From contig KE560384.1 in assembly GCA_000442015.1 (NCBI GenBank), positions 62,001-126,000 on the forward strand: a DNA stretch of 64,000 nt, written 5' to 3'. Each line of letters begins with the position of its first letter. Position 1 is the stretch's first letter. The translations under genes and the position numbers were made by a program. The notes under the pieces were generated by a model. The model searched no databases. It saw nothing but the letters and a program-made list of their open reading frames with translations, and had not been told where the DNA came from. Positions 3,895-46,440 of the stretch are shown one piece after another. Origin of the DNA: Rozella allomycis CSF55. Its lineage: Eukaryota.

Positions 3895-6462
3895 TTATTG
3901 TTTTGGAACATTAGAAACAGAAGAATTAAACCCACCAGAGACCAGAAATTGTGAGGTATTGTGGATGGTCATTCCGGCTACTTTGGCTTGCCAATTTTCG
4001 AATATTTTAGACCATTTTTGGAACGATTCTTTATCAGCGAATTGAATGTTGTATTTATCACCATCAGAGACGATAATAGCCAAAAAAGACTTGTTGTTTC
4101 CAGAGTATTGGAATGAGCGAAGATATTTAACAAACCAACTAATTGAAATGCCACCTGGAGAGATGTTAGCGTCTTCATTATTTCTTTTATATTCTAGCAA
4201 GTGGATAGAGTTTCCATCGGTTGACAGGACAAGGGCTTTCAATTTAAATTCAGAAAATAGTCCTGACGATTTAACTTGAACCTTGGTGAACGCTTTCCAA
4301 TCTTTTGACATTTCGCCATCGATTTTCCCAAGAGAAAGTTTGCTTGCTTTTGTGGCTGGTCTCGAATGTTCTGAATTTCCAGAAAAGATTAAAAACAATT
4401 TGAAAAGAAAAGAGGAAATTAAATTGAAGAATGCAATGTAGGCAATGATGAATAATTTGACGAGAAAGCTGGCTTGGAATCCTAAAACGTTGCTAACCAG
4501 CATTGGGATGACAAAAGCAAGGACCATTGTGACGTTATAGATGGAAAGAGCAAGAATTTTCGTTTCTTGGAATTTAGCTGGGACATGCCTCGTTTTCAAA
4601 GCCATAAATAAATTCATTAAAAGAATTAAGCCGCAGTAAACAAGAATTAAAGTAAGAAAAGTGATTTGATTGTCGGGCGATGAGCTTGAACATGTCCAAT
4701 AGTAATCATGACGCGATGAACCCATTTTAACAACAGGGGAAGGAGAGTCTACAGCGTTCCAAATAATAACGATGAAAATAACTGGAATAGTCAAAGAACT
4801 CCCCAACAGTAAAACCTTCGAATCAGTCCATTTGGATCCTTCCGTTGTGGAAATAATATTAAATAAACGATACAATCTAACTGTTTTAGCAAATGTATTT
4901 CCATAATACAAAGAAAATGCAACAGCCAACAAAAATGAATCCGAAACACACGAAGCTTTCGTGGGTAACCCTGGCATTACAAAGAGTTGCAAAAATGCGA
5001 TTGCTAAAGACAAAAGGGAAACGTAGCTAACTTTAATACTCGATCTCATTAAAATTTGATTTTTTCTAAACAGGAAATAAAACGAAAAGGTCGCGAAAAT
5101 AGAAATTAATCCAATGGAGCCTAGAGCATGTGACAGAGTCCCCACAGGGCTGTTGCTGTCTACGTATTGAGCTACTTCGTATGGATCGATTGCATCTTTA
5201 GGCTTTTTCAACTGACCGCCGGGGTAAATCATCGCAATTCCTGAATTTATTATTTCTCCGTTACTCCACGTTGCTACTAGCTGAGCAGTTCCATTTATTC
5301 CATTATAAACGCTATAATCTCCAATTCTCTCTCCATTAGCGTCGAGAATCACATTTCCTGAAGGTGTCATTAAATCATTAAATTGAAACGTTTCCGGAAC
5401 TCTAATTTGATTATGATAAGTTTTGTTAATTAAATTATCAATAGAATTAAGATTTGATGATTTGAAAATTCGGTCTAGACCATGGATCAACAAGTCTAGA
5501 CAACTGGCCATCGCCATCGAATATACCCCTGGAATCGTTGAAGTTGTATTTATTGCAATTGGAGAATTCGTTTGATAAACACCCTGCGGCCACATTGATT
5601 TTATTTCATCATAAATTGGCCCTTGGCCTTCCTTTGCAATAAAAATAATACTCCCTTCAATTTCATTCTTTTGAATCGGATCATCAAACACTGTAATCAC
5701 CCCATCAGATGCAAGCCACGCATATCCCGCACCATATATTCCTTGCTCCTTGGCCACATTGATTATCTTTACATAATCAACAGCAAACCCAAAATATACA
5801 ATAATTCTTGAATCAACCGATTTTGTTGCTTGAACCGCCGACAATATTCGTTCTTTAGAATCTTCGCTATAAAACGATACCCTGGACAAGATTTGTATTC
5901 CCAGCTGTTTGGCTGTAATTGCAAACTGGTTTGCTAGATCCTGTCCATAATTGTCATTAGATGCTATCAACGAAACCATTTTCCATCCACTATTTTTAAC
6001 GTATTGCGCCATAGCATCCGCTTGGAACGTGTCACTAGGTGAGGTTCTGAAAAAGTTGCCGTATTTAGTTTTATCTCCCAGAGTTGGATTAGTAGACGAT
6101 CCACAGCACATTGGCAATTTGAAAGACTGCAGAACAAGAGACTCTATCGTTGACAAACTCGAGTAACCGGCGCCAATTATTCCCAGCATATTTTCATTAT
6201 TGAATTCAATCATCTGAGGCACTATTTTTGTACTATCCAGATCACTGTTCTTAAATGTTAATCTAATTGTTGCATTTGGGTGGATCAATGACGCATTTTG
6301 GTTTAATTGATCTGCACGAAGATATATGGCGTTGATCATGTCGATGAAAACAGTTTGATAGGATGTTATACCCAAAGAGATACCTATATTAATCGGTATA
6401 GTCCCATTAGGACTAAGAGATATTACACAAGATGCATAAAATAAGAGTAGTAATATCATCAT
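3895..6462 (-). CDS. Class C (GABA-B/mGluR-like) GPCR: signal peptide, Venus-flytrap domain, 7TM, C-terminal PH-like region; intronless
   Basis: GIIGAGYSS, KTKYGNFFRTSPSD, KTVRLYRLF, KTRHVPAKFQETK motifs; seven hydrophobic segments; probable start MMILLL at 6462. Confidence 0.9.
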   Translation of the reverse strand: MMILLLLFYASCVISLSPNGTIPINIGISLGITSYQTVFIDMINAIYLRADQLNQNASLIHPNATIRLTFKNSDLDSTKIVPQMIEFNNENMLGIIGAGYSSLSTIESLVLQSFKLPMCCGSSTNPTLGDKTKYGNFFRTSPSDTFQADAMAQYVKNSGWKMVSLIASNDNYGQDLANQFAITAKQLGIQILSRVSFYSEDSKERILSAVQATKSVDSRIIVYFGFAVDYVKIINVAKEQGIYGAGYAWLASDGVITVFDDPIQKNEIEGSIIFIAKEGQGPIYDEIKSMWPQGVYQTNSPIAINTTSTIPGVYSMAMASCLDLLIHGLDRIFKSSNLNSIDNLINKTYHNQIRVPETFQFNDLMTPSGNVILDANGERIGDYSVYNGINGTAQLVATWSNGEIINSGIAMIYPGGQLKKPKDAIDPYEVAQYVDSNSPVGTLSHALGSIGLISIFATFSFYFLFRKNQILMRSSIKVSYVSLLSLAIAFLQLFVMPGLPTKASCVSDSFLLAVAFSLYYGNTFAKTVRLYRLFNIISTTEGSKWTDSKVLLLGSSLTIPVIFIVIIWNAVDSPSPVVKMGSSRHDYYWTCSSSSPDNQITFLTLILVYCGLILLMNLFMALKTRHVPAKFQETKILALSIYNVTMVLAFVIPMLVSNVLGFQASFLVKLFIIAYIAFFNLISSFLFKLFLIFSGNSEHSRPATKASKLSLGKIDGEMSKDWKAFTKVQVKSSGLFSEFKLKALVLSTDGNSIHLLEYKRNNEDANISPGGISISWFVKYLRSFQYSGNNKSFLAIIVSDGDKYNIQFADKESFQKWSKIFENWQAKVAGMTIHNTSQFLVSGGFNSSVSNVPKQ

Positions 6463-19197: not shown

Positions 19198-20577
19198 TTA
19201 AATTTGTCGATACATCGGGATGTGACTTTTGGATTTTCGACGTTTGGAATATCCAATCGCGATGATGCCCAGTAATAACAGTCCACCAGCACTGGCAAAT
19301 ATGACAATAGTCCTTGTCTTTTGGGTTCTTTTTGATGATTTTTCTTCACTGTCTTGTTCAAAATTGGGATTTATATGTCTATGGTTTTGACTGTCTCCAT
19401 TACTACTAGACCGAAAGATTCTGTTAAAATACTCATCAGTTCCACGCAACCTGACTTCATCGTTATCGTTATTTGTTGGATTTTCATTTTGATTGCAATC
19501 CATCGAAACAGGTAGATCAATACCTGTACTCTCTGGTTCCTCAATATCCTTATGGCCTTTAGGGGGAAGAATATTCTCCTCATCAACAGGCTTAAAAGTA
19601 ACTTCATCATCATTAGGTTTGACCGTAGCTTCATCATCTTTAGGCTTAACAGTAACTTCATCATCTTTAGGCTTAACAGTAACTTCATCATCGTTAGGCT
19701 TAACAGTAACTTCATCATCGTTAGGCTTAACAGTATCGTCATTGTCATCAGCCTTAACGGTTTCTTCATCATCATTAAGGTTAGAATGTTCGTTTGAGTC
19801 GTCATCATTCGGCCCTCCCAGTATGAATTCTACAAAGCGCTTTAGAATGCCCTTGTTTATTGGCTTCTGCGAAACTGGGTTTTCCGTTTCCACATTTTCA
19901 TCGACATCGCTACTATCATCATCTGGTCCTCCTAAAATAACATTTTTAAGCGAACGTAAGAAACGTCTAAAATATCCATCATTCTTATCGAGATTTTTCA
20001 ATGTAGGTTCTTTATCATGAGCACCGTTCAAATCGTCTTCAATATTTTTCACAGTGTCTTCATCGTCACTTGGGCCACCGAGAATTAATTCCTTGGTGCT
20101 TTGCATTATACTATTTTTCTTGGATGACTTTGTTATTATCTCCGTTGACTGGTTCTCTTCCTCATCCTCGTTATCATCAACGGCATCATTTGAACCTCCA
20201 AGAATAACATTTTTAACGCTGCCCCAAAATCCTTGTAGAAAGCTTTCCTTTTTGGAATTCAAATATTCATCATTGAGTCTAACTTCATTAGACTCAGATT
20301 TCATGGTGTTTTCCTTCTTCTCGATTTTATCTGACTTTTTAATAGGCGCTGTATTTCTTCTCGGTGTCTCAAATACTCCAAAATCTTCATTCTTTAAGGG
20401 AGCTTTATCACCAGCTTTTTTGGTGTTGATGTTTGTCTTGTTTGTTCTTAAGCTAGGCTGAGACTTGGAACTTATATTTATGTGTTTAGGAATTTTAAAC
20501 TCATTTCTTCTTTTGAAAGGAAGAGCTGCTGTGAAATAAAGTGCTACTACCAAAAAGAGGAACAAAGAAAATTTCAT
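19198..20577 (-). CDS. Acidic, repeat-rich type I membrane/surface protein; intronless
   Basis: Signal peptide MKFSLFLFLVVALYFTAA; four ILGG(P/S)xDD repeats; VKPxDDEVT array; C-terminal TM then KRRK. Confidence 0.8.
   Translation of the reverse strand: MKFSLFLFLVVALYFTAALPFKRRNEFKIPKHINISSKSQPSLRTNKTNINTKKAGDKAPLKNEDFGVFETPRRNTAPIKKSDKIEKKENTMKSESNEVRLNDEYLNSKKESFLQGFWGSVKNVILGGSNDAVDDNEDEEENQSTEIITKSSKKNSIMQSTKELILGGPSDDEDTVKNIEDDLNGAHDKEPTLKNLDKNDGYFRRFLRSLKNVILGGPDDDSSDVDENVETENPVSQKPINKGILKRFVEFILGGPNDDDSNEHSNLNDDEETVKADDNDDTVKPNDDEVTVKPNDDEVTVKPKDDEVTVKPKDDEATVKPNDDEVTFKPVDEENILPPKGHKDIEEPESTGIDLPVSMDCNQNENPTNNDNDEVRLRGTDEYFNRIFRSSSNGDSQNHRHINPNFEQDSEEKSSKRTQKTRTIVIFASAGGLLLLGIIAIGYSKRRKSKSHIPMYRQI
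19589..19775 (-). repeat. 27-bp coding tandem repeat, about 7 units (VKP[N/K]DDEVT)
   Basis: ggcttaacagtaacttcatcatc(g/t)tta repeated with few changes. Confidence 0.9.
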
Positions 20578-35927: not shown

Positions 35928-37739
<1,812 letters not shown>

Positions 37740-37864: not shown

Positions 37865-38022
37865 GGGATTCCCCGGCAAGCCAGAGGAATCCAAACCAGA
37901 AATTATAAGGCCGAGATGCCGTAATGACATTCGTTGAACACGACCGGACGGGATGTGCAATGCCCCATCATGCCCAATAAGTCCAGCGAAGTTGACTACT
38001 GGACTTACCCTCCAGGTAAGTT
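37865..38022 (-). ncRNA. U1: U1 spliceosomal snRNA (about 158 nt)
   Basis: 5' AACUUACCUG; helix GAGG/CCUU; 11-bp stem I; AUUGCAC U1A loop; stem III; Sm site AAUUUCUGG (37896-37904); terminal GC-rich stem IV. Confidence 0.95.
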
Positions 38023-38114
38023 AACTCTGTGGAAAATTACAGAATATATGGGTTCCAAATTTCAGGAAAGGTTACTTGTGGGTAATAATTTAATTAAAGC
38101 CAAGAGAAATAAAT

Positions 38115-41100
38115 TTATTGTAACATTTTTAAGGAAAAGCCTCTCTTTCTTTGCTCTGGAGCCTTTTCTTCGCAAGTGATATCAAAGAATAATGATATTT
38201 TGTCTTTGTGAGTGTCTGAAATGGTAACAGTGAATGAAATGGGACCATTGGTACCATTTAATATTTCGCCTGGAATAAACGAGCCTTGAGCTACCAGTTC
38301 ACTTTCAGTAATAAGGTTAGCATGTCGTAATTCAACATGTAGAGACGTTAAAAGGTCTTTTAAATAGATCTGGAAAGTTTCATTGAATGCCAATGAATTC
38401 TTTTTCAAAGTTTTCGATTTGAAAACAGTTTTGGAAGAATCCTTGATTTTGACGTAGAGATCATTTCTTGGAGAGGCCATATCCATGTTCTTCAGCTTCA
38501 AATTTAGCAGCCAGATTTTATTAGCGTTTATTGATAAATCTGATTTTGACAGTGTTTTAGCAATTTCAGTTGATTGATGGTCACCCAGCATGTCAGCAAT
38601 AGAATCCATCGACATTGAGTAAATGGGGTTTTCAGAGTTTCTTTGATCGTTTAAAGTATCTTCGCTTTCATCATTTTCACTTTGAAAGTCGACGTCATTT
38701 CTCATGTCCATTGAAAATCGTTGCATTAAATGTCTTTTCGCATTTCTTATATTCTTTGAGAGTTTTTTTGGATTAAGACTATTGATGACGGAATTTTGTT
38801 TGGCTTGAAGTAGAGATGGATACAAATACAGCTGGATGTTAAGATCCCCTTGTTGTTTCAAATTGCTAAGAGTTAGGCATTTTGAGATAGATTTTCCGAT
38901 TTCTAGATCAGACAAATTGTAGTTGGCTGAGCCTAATAAGACGCTGAAATTAACTTTATTCCAATCTTTAACATCAAAAGTTAAAATTGGGTTTTTTCTG
39001 TCAAAGGGGATTTCAAACATTTCATTCCAAATTGGATTGCATGATTTCTTAATAACTTTAGTTTTGAATATTTTGTCATTTCCAATTCGTACAGTGCAAA
39101 ATGGGTCGCTACTTTCTTCATTGTCCACTGCTTCAAGGTTAGACGCAGAAATGATTTCCACTTGCAAGATTAGCGGGGCTTTATTTGAAAATATTAAGTT
39201 ATTTACTTTTATCGTCAATTAATTTATTAACAAATGGAAGAGAACTGGAAACTTTGTATGAAACAGCGATGGATAATTCACCGCCATTTTCAGAGTTTTT
39301 TAAAGGAAAGAAGGAATCCTAATTTTGAAATAATGAAATAAAAATACGATTTGATTTAAATTTGGCAAATTTAATGGAAGGGAAAGTAAGCCAACAATTT
39401 GATGCCCTGAGGTAGGCATATCTTTTTGATCTTTAACAAGAATATTTATTTTAGTTTTTGAAGGATCTAAAATTAGAAATTCAAAAGTTTCGTCCCAATT
39501 AGGATCCATTTTCTTTTCATTTTTTGTTCTTTGACTTTCATCAGTTGCATCGTTGAGAAACAATTCAACAAAAGGGTTGATTAATTTTCCTTTGAAATAT
39601 CTCAATTGTTTTACAGTCACTGAAAGAATTCCAATAAATGGTTCAATGGAGGTTTCAGGGGTAATCAAGTCAAAATATCCAGCTTGGAAGTTTATTAATC
39701 CTTTATCAATCAAATTAATTGAACTTTTAAAGATTTAAAATAATTTTACTAATCTTCAACGATGCCAGTTTTTGTTGTTAAATTGAAGACTGAAAATTGG
39801 CATTTCCCAGTTGATAAATCTTTTCCAATGTTGCTCTTTTCAAGAATCTCCAACGTTATTAATTCTTGTGGTAATGAAAGTGGGAAATAAAGATTTTCTC
39901 CTTTCCATTCAACAGACCCTGCATGGCTGGAAAAGGTAGTTGATGATCTCGCTGTAACGTTTGAATATGATGAAATCAATCGACAATAATAAACACCTTT
40001 GCCTCTAACATCATCATGTTTCAATCCAATTCCATCTTTTAAACTTATTTTTATTATTCCAATATATAATTCTTTTAAATCGTTTAATAAGAATTACTCT
40101 TTTCCATGCTAGATAAATTCTCATTGAAAATCATATTCACATGCTTAAAACTAAATGTCATTCTTATTTTGCCAGATTCTGCATTTTTTAAAATGAACCA
40201 ATCCTTTTGTGCATCCTTTACTTGTCATACTTCAATTTTACTTGTTGAATAACATCCTTGACTGGAATTGAGATATTTCCAATTAGGCCTGAACCCGCCA
40301 AAATATCTCTCTGGTCATAAATTGATACAATTATAGTTTGAATATTTAAATCATGTATAAAAACTTCAAATGTTTCTTCAAAAGTAGGTGAATTGTTTCT
40401 CTTTTTAGTTCTAGTCTTGAAGAGAACCATCGGTTGTTGTCTTGAATATTCTTCCAAGTTTGTTTGATTTTTATAAATAGAAATCTCTGCAAATGGATTG
40501 TAAAGCTTTGAAATTGTCTTTTCTTTGCTTATCAACTCTTTCGCTTGATGCAAAGTCATTCTCAATATTCCACAAGCTAGTTCTTACAATGCTTCAGGAT
40601 CTTACCAGAATTACATTCTTCTACGTTAGATTCAATAACTGGTGAAAATGATGCGTCAAAATTGATCTCTCCTCTTCCTTCTTTAAAATCAGTCTTTTTC
40701 AATTGAAGCCATCTTTATTTTTAAAAACTTTTAAATCTTTACTGATTGTTTAATGCTTCTCCTTGAATTAATGGCTCAACATCCAATGTAACAAATCCCA
40801 TGGGTTTGTCCTTTTTCAGATTGTTGTAATCCAAAACTCTCAATTTTATCTTTTCACTTGAATTTTGAACAAGAAAATACAAAGTTTCATTCCAAAAGGG
40901 ATTTAAATTGTCCATTATTATTCTAGTTCGGCCAACCTCCTTTTCATTAATTTCAATTTTGACATAAGCATCAGCTGAACCTACTTGTTTAAAGTTAATA
41001 AAAGATTACCCATAGCATCAACTTTGGGAAGATTTCTAGCTTGATGAATCGTCATTTTCAAAACACCAATTGCTGTATCAGCAAACCCTCCACTAATCAT

Positions 41101-43564: not shown

Positions 43565-46440
43565 ATGCAATTGACATTGTTAGCTGTCATTATTCAGTTC
43601 CTAATTTGTGTTAGCAAAGCAAATTCTTTGAATTCTTGCAATGTACATCCGCATAGTAGACATGATTGTGGATACGTAGGCATCAGCCCAGATGAATGTG
43701 AAGCCTTGAATTGTTGCTGGGCTCCATTGCTCACAACAAATCATCCATGGTGTTTTCATAGAAATAAGAATTGTGATGGATACCGCCTAAGCAAGTTGTG
43801 GGAGAGCAAGCACTCAATCGAGGCAAAGTTGGTCGCAATCAATCCTGACTGTTTGAAATTTGGAAAGATCGTTAAAAAATTGAAACTTCTTGTTGATTTT
43901 GAGGACAAGGATAGAATTCATGTAAAGATTGGTGACTGGAAGGGAGAAAGATACCAAGTCCCAGAATCTGTTTTTCCAAGGCCAAAAAGTCAAACTTTTG
44001 ATTTCTTACGTTTTTCAAAGGATAATAGCAAGATAAACTCAAAAATGGTGATTTTTAAAGAAAACAAGGAATATAGAATTGAGATTTTGACTGACCCTTT
44101 TCGATTTAAGATCATTAGAAAAGCAACAATGGAAACGATATTTGAATCTAAAGAAGAATTCATTTTTGAAGAAACTTACATTGAAATGTCCACAAAAATA
44201 AGAGCGGGATCACATTTGTATGGATTAGGAGAAATAGCTAGAAACTTTATAGTGAAAGATAATTCCATTTCAACACTTTTCACGAGAGATGCAGCGACAC
44301 CAGAAAATGAAAATTTGTATGGCTCCCATCCATTTTATCTTGAAATGAATAAAGGAAGATCACATGGAGTGGTAAAATATGTTTCACCTTGTAAAATAGT
44401 TTCTACTGAATAGCAATGCCATGGATGTTATTAAGACCTCTACTTCTTTGACATATAAATTGGTCGGCGGGATTCTTGATTTTTATATCTTCATGGGTCC
44501 TTTGCCAACTGATGTGATTTCACAGTATTGGCAAGTTATTGGAGCGCCGGCTATGATACCTTATTGGGCTCTTGGTTTTCATCAATGCAGATATGGTTAC
44601 AAAACTATTTGGGAAGTAATGGAAGTTGTTGATAACTTTGAAAAACATCAAATTCCTTTGGAAACAATGTGGGTTGACATAGAGTACATTATTTGTCTTC
44701 ACATAACAATAGATACATGGATGGATACAGAGATTTCACTTTCGATCCTCAAAGATACCCCGTTCAAGTTGTTCGTAAATTTGTTGATAAATTACATTCA
44801 AATGGACAAAAGTTTACCTTAATAGTTGACCCTGGTATTAAATTGGATTTGCCTCAAAATTAGGTATTAAAATTGACCCCGGTTTAAAATCATACGACAA
44901 TGGAATAGAGAAAGATATTTTCCTTAAAAATAACAATGGAGACAACTTGATTGGAAAAGTTTGGCCCGGGCTTGTACATTTTCNTTGGAAAAGTTTGGCC
45001 TGGATTTGTACATTTTCCAGATTTCTTTCACCCCAAAGCTCAAGAATGGTGGAACGAATGCTTTGCCGAATTTTATGATCACGTTCCAGTTGATGGTACA
45101 TGGATTGATATGAATGGTAAATATTGAACTGTTATTTAAGAAAGAATTGGCAAACTTTTGTGATGGCGATTGTTTCAATCCTCCAGTGGATTCTGAAAGC
45201 ATCAACTTTACTCCATATAGAATTCACAATGGATGGGCCAGATTACCGCTATTCACAAAAACCACCCCAATGGATGCAGTTCATTATGGGGGTCATTTAG
45301 AATTTGATGTTCATAATTTGTTTGGTTTAATGGAAGCCAAAGCTACTTTTAAAATGTCAACCACATTTCATCCAAACAAAAGACCCTTCATTCTTTCAAG
45401 GTCAACTTTTCCTGGTACTTATATTTTCATAATTAACAATAGGTTCTGGTAAATATTCATATCATTGGACTGGCGATAATTGGTCTACGTGGCGCCAAAT
45501 GCATCTTTCAATTCCAGCAATATTAAACTTTAACATGTTTGGGATTCCAATGGTGGGTGCCGACATTTGCGGATTCAATGGTCAAACCACTGAAAATCTT
45601 TGTGCAAGATGGATGGCTTTAGGTGCCTTTTATCCATTTTCCAGAAATCACAATTCAATTGACGCTGAATCTCAAGAACCTTATCTATGGCCAATCGTTT
45701 CAAAAGTTTCTAAAAAGTATTTACGTTTAAGATACAAGTTATTGCCTTATTGGTACACCCTGTTTTACGAATCATCTGAGTTTAAAAAGGTTGTAATTCA
45801 ACCCTTGTTCTTTGATTTCCCAAATGATGAAATCTCTCTTTCTATAGACACGCAATTCATGTTAGGAAGCAGTTTGATGGTTTCACCTGTACTAAAAGAC
45901 TCGGAAAGCGTTAACGTATATTTTCCAAAAGCTAAATGGTACGCGTTGGAAAGTTTTGAGGCTATTCCATCCGATGGATACCATCAAATACATGCATCAA
46001 TTGATTACCTCCCTGTCTACATTAAAGGGGGTCGTATAGTACCAATTCAAGGATTCGCCATGGTCACTGAGAAAGCAAGGAAACAACCATTTCATTTGTT
46101 AATTGCATTAAGTGAAAATGGTAAGGCATCTGGATCATTGTACATTGATGACGGAGAATCATTGAATATTAAATCACATTATTCTTACATTCATTTCAGT
46201 GCGAACATTAAAGATAATTATGGATCGATTTCATCAAAAGGAAAGTTTGATTACGCAGCACCTCAAATATGCAGCGTAAAAATACTTGGAATGAAATGGA
46301 AACCTGCAAAAATACAAATCAGTGGCAATGAAATAACCGAAAGAAATTCTTCATATGATTCAACCAAGGGTGTATTGCAAATTGAAAACATTGAATTGCC
46401 GACTTCAAGCGAATTTATTATCCACTTGATCAACTTTTAA
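43565..46440 (+). CDS. Secreted/lysosomal GH31 alpha-glucosidase with N-terminal trefoil domain, 6 exons
   Basis: Signal peptide; trefoil RHDCGY...C...CCW...[22 protein letters not shown] nucleophile; HWTGDN; GADICGF. Confidence 0.95.

Follow-up and report, generated by a model that had tools for sequence, protein, structure and literature searches.

Few contacts between RNA and protein in the spliceosome are as conserved as the docking of the U1-70K protein on stem-loop I (SL1) of the U1 snRNA. A gene in Rozella allomycis CSF55 raises the question of what has become of this contact in an organism whose U1 RNA presents every functional element in canonical form except loop I, the loop on which U1-70K docks in other eukaryotes. 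The gene lies on the minus strand of a stretch of 64,000 nucleotides, the whole of the DNA that was analysed, referred to below as the window; all coordinates are those of the window. An earlier note on this DNA had described a well-formed U1 with a fully diverged U1-70K loop, and had proposed that U1-70K has diverged along with it, been shortened or been lost, with a possible link to the splicing of tiny introns.

The segment 37865-38023 (minus strand, 159 nt as aligned) aligns by Infernal to the Rfam model RF00003 (U1) over model positions 1-166 of 166, with a score of 69.0 bits. The E-value is 5.6e-17 for the 701-nt stretch searched and 5.2e-15 for the whole window, where this is the sole Rfam match at E<=0.01; given such a value, the homology of the segment to U1 is beyond doubt. 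The score falls 0.5 bit short of the Rfam gathering threshold of 69.5 bits. A default Rfam scan of the window at that threshold accordingly gave 0 matches and left the U1 gene unlisted, so that routine annotation of the Rozella genome misses U1; the practical upshot is a U1 gene overlooked by standard Rfam annotation. Judged from its sequence, 37865-38023 is a genuine U1 snRNA gene of R. allomycis, and probably the sole or main copy. The organism needs a working U1, since its 11.86 Mb genome carries 20,678 introns in 6,350 genes, according to a supplementary table of PMC10158995. The one RNA run compared that bears the same species label (X10) gave no coverage of the gene, which counts neither for nor against its expression. 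Two snoRNA-like matches beside the U1 gene (E of 0.19 and 0.22, with about half of the gathering scores) were rejected as chance.

No description of a Rozella U1 was found among the papers listed in searches of the literature, including those by the loop letters and by the terms U1-70K, Snp1 and SNRNP70. For rozellids together with snRNA, PMC6349667 was the only paper among the matches listed to mention snRNA. The Paramicrosporidium genome paper does not mention introns or splicing, and neither Rozella nor any microsporidian has an entry in the supplements of PMC8211703.

The RNA begins with the 5' splice-site recognition sequence ACUUACCUG (38013..38021), which agrees at 9 of 9 letters and is aligned to the 5' end of the model. 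Next comes the 5' strand of helix H (GAGG, 38009..38012), placed by a constrained fold that agrees with the Rfam structure line; its 3' strand (CCUU, 37907..37910) comes from the same constrained fold. SL1 occupies 37977..38008, as found by folding 37976-38009, and has a stem of 11 bp without mismatch and a 10-nt loop (37988..37997). Stem-loop II (37935..37976), stem-loop III (37912..37933, a 22-nt hairpin) and the 3' stem-loop IV (37866..37892) are each placed by the Rfam alignment and the fold. The loop of stem-loop II carries the canonical U1A-binding motif AUUGCAC at 37955..37961, and the Sm site AAUUUCUGG, of the AAUUUnUGG type, lies at 37896..37904. Helix H closes a four-way junction with SL1 to SL3, the Sm site is single-stranded, and stem-loop IV follows at the 3' end, the arrangement of the U1 cloverleaf. 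The minimum free energy of the whole RNA is -59.3 kcal/mol (z of -3.58, with 0 of 200 shuffles folding as well), and constraining the 5' end to be free costs little, at -59.1 kcal/mol. The 34-nt segment 37976-38009, which holds SL1, reaches -14.3 kcal/mol (z of -5.2; 0 of 200 shuffles as good). The earlier description of a well-formed U1 is thus borne out for the 5' end, the U1A loop, the Sm site and all helices. Upstream, the sequence TATATT at 38043..38048 on the same strand, which starts 25 nt upstream of where the aligned segment begins, is a candidate TATA-like promoter element.

The RNA also contains a mimic of a 5' splice site. Positions 38003-38009 (minus strand), where helix H meets the 5' strand of SL1, read GGUAAGU, a perfect consensus 5' splice site that is complementary to ACUUACC in the RNA's own 5' end (38015-38021, minus strand). 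A conformer in which the two pair has an energy of -57.5 against the minimum of -59.3, only 1.8 kcal/mol above it. The 7-mer turns up in about 1% of mononucleotide shuffles of the U1 body, and GGTAAGT occurs internally in 6 of the 128 environmental U1 genes listed among the matches of the metagenome scan described below, all from a single lineage. The mimic is probably a coincidence.

Positions 37988-37997 read GAAGTTGACT on the forward strand, the reverse complement being AGTCAACTTC, so that loop I of the RNA is AGUCAACUUC. Compared with the Rfam consensus GAUCAaGAAG, 6 of 10 positions differ (1, 2, 7, 8, 9 and 10), and only positions 3-6 (UCAA) match. The U1-70K motif GAUCRYGARR, as given in PMC5499648, fits at 3 of 10 positions (U, C and A). 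In human numbering the changes are G28 to A, A29 to G, G34 to C, A35 to U, A36 to U and G37 to C. The earlier claim that loop I departs strongly from the loop read by U1-70K is therefore correct, with six of the ten consensus positions changed, but "fully diverged" is too strong a term, because U30, C31 and A32, which contact the RRM in human, are kept. Four matches in ten are not above chance by count alone (binomial P of about 0.22), and it is only the place and contiguity of the four matching positions that are suggestive.

The structure of the human particle (Kondo et al. 2015, PMC4383343) assigns a role to each of these positions. C31 and A32 stack on Phe106 (RNP2) and Phe148 (RNP1) of U1-70K, and U30 packs on Leu175 and bonds Asp177. 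The loop is closed by a trans Watson-Crick/Hoogsteen pair between A29 and A36, which leaves in effect five nucleotides in it, and A35, A36 and G37 are stacked on the closing pair. G28 is flipped out onto Tyr112 and Arg172, and C33 and G34 lie between Arg191 and Lys138. The Rozella loop keeps U, C and A at 30-32 and has G and U where human U1 has the A29-A36 pair, which may plausibly be replaced by a G-U wobble. Set against this structure, the bases kept appear to be those that contact the beta-sheet, and the changes appear to fall on positions read by segments flanking the RRM. Such a pattern is what co-adaptation with a retained U1-70K would be expected to look like, and the loop, with UCA kept and A-A turned into G-U, lets the human U1-70K/SL1 structure be tested by natural covariation. 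A Pfam scan found no RRM or U1-70K family member in the window; of the 104 ORFs that run from stop to stop with a length of 90 aa or more, it covered 97, the other 7 overlapping longer ORFs in other frames.

To place the Rozella loop, metagenomes were scanned for a generic U1 pattern of three anchors, which matched at least 128 loci; the 128 listed include 119 distinct sequences. Distance was taken as the number of best-register mismatches to GAUCA-GAAG over 9 positions, ignoring the freely varying position 6. Among the 128 matches listed the distance was 0 in 43, 1 in 56, 2 in 26 and 3 in 3, and in one of the three at distance 3 (L112) the loop is lost altogether. The Rozella loop has a distance of 6 at its true register, against at most 3 in all 128 listed genes; the sample is skewed to canonical U1 because canonical anchors were required, and the best-register measure also favours low distances. 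Many of the listed genes may come from plants, which is a guess. Counted over the same 128 genes, the Rozella letter occurs as follows, from position 1 to position 10: A in 1, G in 8, U in 123, C in 128, A in 115, A in 45, C in 26, U in 4, U in 9 and C in 1. Three Rozella letters are thus the rule in the listed sample, those at positions 6 and 7 are ordinary variants, and those at 1, 8 and 10 are rare. Identity to the Rozella U1 peaks at 68% among the listed genes and has a median of 64%, and the set holds no close relative. A pattern built on the Rozella loop itself, ACTTACCTG..TCAACTTC..ATTGCAC, had 0 matches in 241 million metagenome records. A looser pattern was run on prokaryote genome contigs in search of misbinned eukaryote DNA; its 4 matches were set aside as chance, none being U1 by Rfam at E<=0.01.

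The two loop positions that pair in the human complex also vary together in the listed sample. At positions 2 and 9 the 128 genes have A/A in 115, G/U in 7, G/A in 1, A/U in 2, A/C in 2 and U/A in 1, a covariation with a Fisher P of 3e-9 that is overstated, since the seven G/U cases are all kin, one lineage from a few related metagenomes. They may represent a single evolutionary event. This lineage (loci L005, L029, L035, L062, L068, L069 and L106; an example is GGUCAGGAUG) shows a natural double change that fits the pair bridging the loop in the human U1-70K complex.

Assembly error can be set aside as the source of the unusual loop. The U1 gene is covered by Logan contigs of X1, X3 and X4, DNA runs that each come from a different study, and no letter differs among them within 37865-38023. 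The possibility that loop I is a sequencing or assembly artefact, which the 41 N in the window might bring to mind as the mark of a draft assembly, is contradicted by this agreement at every U1 base and has a negligible probability. All 11 differences listed fall at 38050-38261, in the 277 nt to one side of the gene. A single X1 contig covers all 601 nt compared, a single X4 contig covers 37700-38238, and neither breaks inside the U1 gene. Since contigs built from 31-letter words should break at a gene that has a near-identical paralogue with a different loop and no other change, their continuity here is a hint, not proof, against such a paralogue.

Beyond the gene, two versions of 38239-38261 (plus strand) coexist in X3 and X4, differing at five or six close sites, with depths of about 94 and 180 in X3 and 92 and 81 in X4. 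This segment lies within the last exon of a C2-domain gene, and the presence of both versions would fit sequenced material that contained two haplotypes or strains.

The tiny introns reported in the earlier note are present. Nine introns read by eye in genes for a GH31 glucosidase and HPPD are 27-29 nt long; examples in the window, on the plus strand, are 44372-44399, 44684-44712, 44835-44863, 36582-36608 and 37112-37140, and 36371-36399 was also read by eye. A frame-bridging screen admitting any GT donor was too noisy, and the screen was restricted to GTA donors instead. It gave 20, 15, 27 and 17 candidates at 26, 27, 28 and 29 nt, a total of 79, and between 0 and 12 at every other length from 18 to 120 nt. 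Some of the 79 are false, among them three that fall in a coding repeat at 19652-19733. Among 76 distinct donors, A follows at +4 in 51 and U at +6 in 27, and G stands at +5 in only 12. Pairing of the donor with U1 would therefore rest mostly on GUAA, G at +5 not being preferred. Introns of about 30 nt in Rozella S23 have been mentioned by Whelan et al. 2018 (PMC6349667), and a density of 2.5 introns per kb is given for Rozella in PMC8476143.

Comparison with known systems shows where the Rozella RNA stands. With canonical U1 (RF00003; human, S. cerevisiae) it shares the 5' end, the four-way junction, AUUGCAC, the Sm site, stem-loop IV and a 10-nt loop I with a central UCA. It differs in the letters of that loop, where AGUCAACUUC replaces GAUCACGAAG (human) or GAUCAAGAAG (yeast), the latter two as given in the supplement of PMC5499648. 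The same paper (Belkorchia et al. 2017) places Rozella as sister to Microsporidia, as found in the literature, and reports the long-missing U1 of Encephalitozoon and Nosema, in which stem-loops I and II have no recognisable sites for U1-70K (GAUCRYGARR) or U1A (YUGCAYUY). According to its supplement, the SL1 loops of four Encephalitozoon species are CUUCACU, UUUCAUU, CUUCAU and CUUCAUU, with UCA present, and three Nosema species have 4-nt loops. The microsporidian RNAs are thus like that of Rozella in that loop I misses GAUCRYGARR and, in Encephalitozoon, retains UCA. They are unlike it, as far as that source describes them, in having loops of 4-7 nt, a lost U1A site, an altered Sm site and a short stem-loop III, whereas in Rozella loop I has 10 nt, the U1A loop and the Sm site are canonical, and stem-loop III is a hairpin of 22 nt. 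The U1-70K loop alone is altered, so the Rozella RNA is not a reduced U1 of the microsporidian type. The host genomes also differ, with about 20,000 introns in Rozella against 37 in E. cuniculi according to PMC10158995.

The U1 of the Guillardia theta nucleomorph (Asman et al. 2019, PMC6461891) shows the same pattern of a kept U1A site, recognisable in stem-loop II, and an altered U1-70K loop, with no apparent U1-70K site in SL1. As described there, it differs from the Rozella RNA in having no stem-loop IV and in belonging to a genome with 17 introns and no U1-70K gene; Rozella has a complete RNA in an intron-rich nuclear genome. A third point of comparison is the U1 of Stentor coeruleus, which is reported in PMC9505925 to be conserved in sequence and structure and for which U1A, U1C and U1-70K have been found. 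Stentor resembles Rozella in having tiny introns, smaller still, and a conserved 5' end, ACUUACCU. A U1 without a canonical U1-70K loop is therefore already known in reduced genomes, those of Encephalitozoon, Nosema and the Guillardia nucleomorph. What Rozella adds is position and context, an intron-rich sister of Microsporidia in which the U1-70K loop alone has changed.

The explanation towards which we lean is that the gene encodes a working U1 whose loop I is lineage-specific with the RRM-contact core kept, and that this loop is probably still bound by a co-adapted U1-70K. Retention and co-adaptation of the Rozella U1-70K are inferred from its relatives and from the geometry of the loop. 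The RNA would recognise 5' splice sites through its canonical 5' end and would assemble with Sm proteins and U1A at their canonical sites. SL1 would have standard geometry, with its 11-bp stem and 10-nt loop presenting a central U-C-A to the beta-sheet of the U1-70K RRM as in the human particle. The outer positions of loop I would have been rewritten, the A29-A36 closing pair giving way to G-U, and a retained U1-70K/Snp1 would still dock through the U-C-A core, with lineage-specific changes in the residues flanking its RRM. The change may be part of a drift of the SL1/U1-70K interface across the clade of Rozella and Microsporidia. Because only the U1-70K loop is altered, while the U1A loop, the Sm site, stem-loop III and the loop length are canonical, Rozella would look like an early or intermediate state of the microsporidian change in U1. 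Speaking against this explanation, SL1 drifts freely in Nosema, which shows that the loop can lose its constraint within the clade.

That observation leads to a competing account, which we regard as unlikely, in which U1-70K is gone or has ceased to read the loop, SL1 is a mere structural arm of the four-way junction, and the loop drifts as in Nosema. The extent of the change would suit it, as would the rarity of three of the Rozella letters among the 128 listed genes (one has A at position 1, four have U at position 8 and one has C at position 10). So would two precedents, as far as the sources cited above describe them: the SL1 loops of the sister clade, which are genus-specific, shortened and without a U1-70K site, and the Guillardia nucleomorph, where the U1A site is kept, no U1-70K site is apparent and the U1-70K gene is missing. 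Speaking against drift of this kind are the 10-nt length and the U-C-A, kept in exact register, and the appearance at positions 29 and 36 of G and U, which are able to pair. The organism is also intron-rich, and past GUAA its donors are weak (12 of 76 have G at +5), so that the help of U1-70K and U1C should matter. E. cuniculi, moreover, has a more diverged loop and is still credited with 4 U1 proteins in a table of Hudson et al. 2015 (PMC4829280). We disfavour, as somewhat less probable again, an alternative raised in part by the earlier note: a main U1 with a canonical loop would lie elsewhere in the genome, and the gene described here would be a variant or minor copy or a recently formed pseudogene. 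Variant U1 genes exist in many eukaryotes, several contigs among the 128 matches listed hold two to four U1 genes, and the score is just below the Rfam gathering threshold. The helices are nevertheless all intact, including the SL1 stem of 11 bp without a mismatch, and no flaw is seen in the 5' end, the U1A loop or the Sm site. Changes gathered in one loop, and not scattered, would not be the pattern of decay. No polymorphism occurs in the gene in 3 runs, the X1 and X4 contigs run unbroken through it, and the genome is small, at 11.86 Mb.

The link with tiny introns proposed in the earlier note receives no support, and its stronger form, that the loop changed as an adaptation to introns of 26-29 nt on which U1 and U2 nearly overlap, with the U1-70K arm remodelled to fit, is improbable to a high degree. 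The sharp peak of candidates at 26-29 nt and the nine introns of 27-29 nt read in two genes are in keeping with it, as is the occurrence of odd U1 RNAs in other genomes with small introns, namely those of Encephalitozoon and of the Guillardia and Bigelowiella nucleomorphs; the Bigelowiella U1 is shortened to 102 nt and has no apparent U1A site according to PMC6461891. The case of Stentor, however, speaks against the idea that tiny introns force loop I to change, since its introns are smaller and its U1 is reported to be conserved, along with U1A, U1C and U1-70K, in text of PMC9505925 that does not give the loop I letters. No mechanism ties the letters of the loop to intron length, and the remaining odd U1 RNAs all come from reduced genomes, so that genome reduction is a confounder.

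A bolder proposition, which we hold to be doubtful, is that in this intron-rich parasite, with about 20,000 introns of 26-29 nt, the U1-70K/SL1 interface has been rewired or abandoned in an otherwise canonical U1, and that this remodelling preceded the loss of introns in the clade. If it were true, 5' splice-site recognition would depend on a U1 particle with a U1-70K arm that functions in another way, and the sharing of a 26-29-nt intron by U1 and U2 would be a possible reason for the altered arm. Divergent loops have so far been reported from genomes that have nearly abandoned splicing (Microsporidia and nucleomorphs); a remodelled loop in the intron-rich sister of Microsporidia would date the onset of change in the U1 snRNP to before intron loss.

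Several other features of the window were observed in passing. A DEAD-box ORF matches HAS1 of Rozella allomycis CSF55 with 100% identity. The product of a single-exon ORF of 855 aa at 3895-6462 (minus strand) is a class C GPCR in which Pfam recognises a ligand-binding domain of the ANF-receptor family together with 7tm_3. At 19198-20577 (minus strand) lies a gene for an acidic, secreted-looking protein of 459 aa with a C-terminal membrane anchor and no Pfam match. It contains tandem 27-nt (9-aa) repeats of the type DDEVTVKPN around 19652-19733, and the antisense of this repeat ORF gave rise to the three false intron candidates mentioned above.
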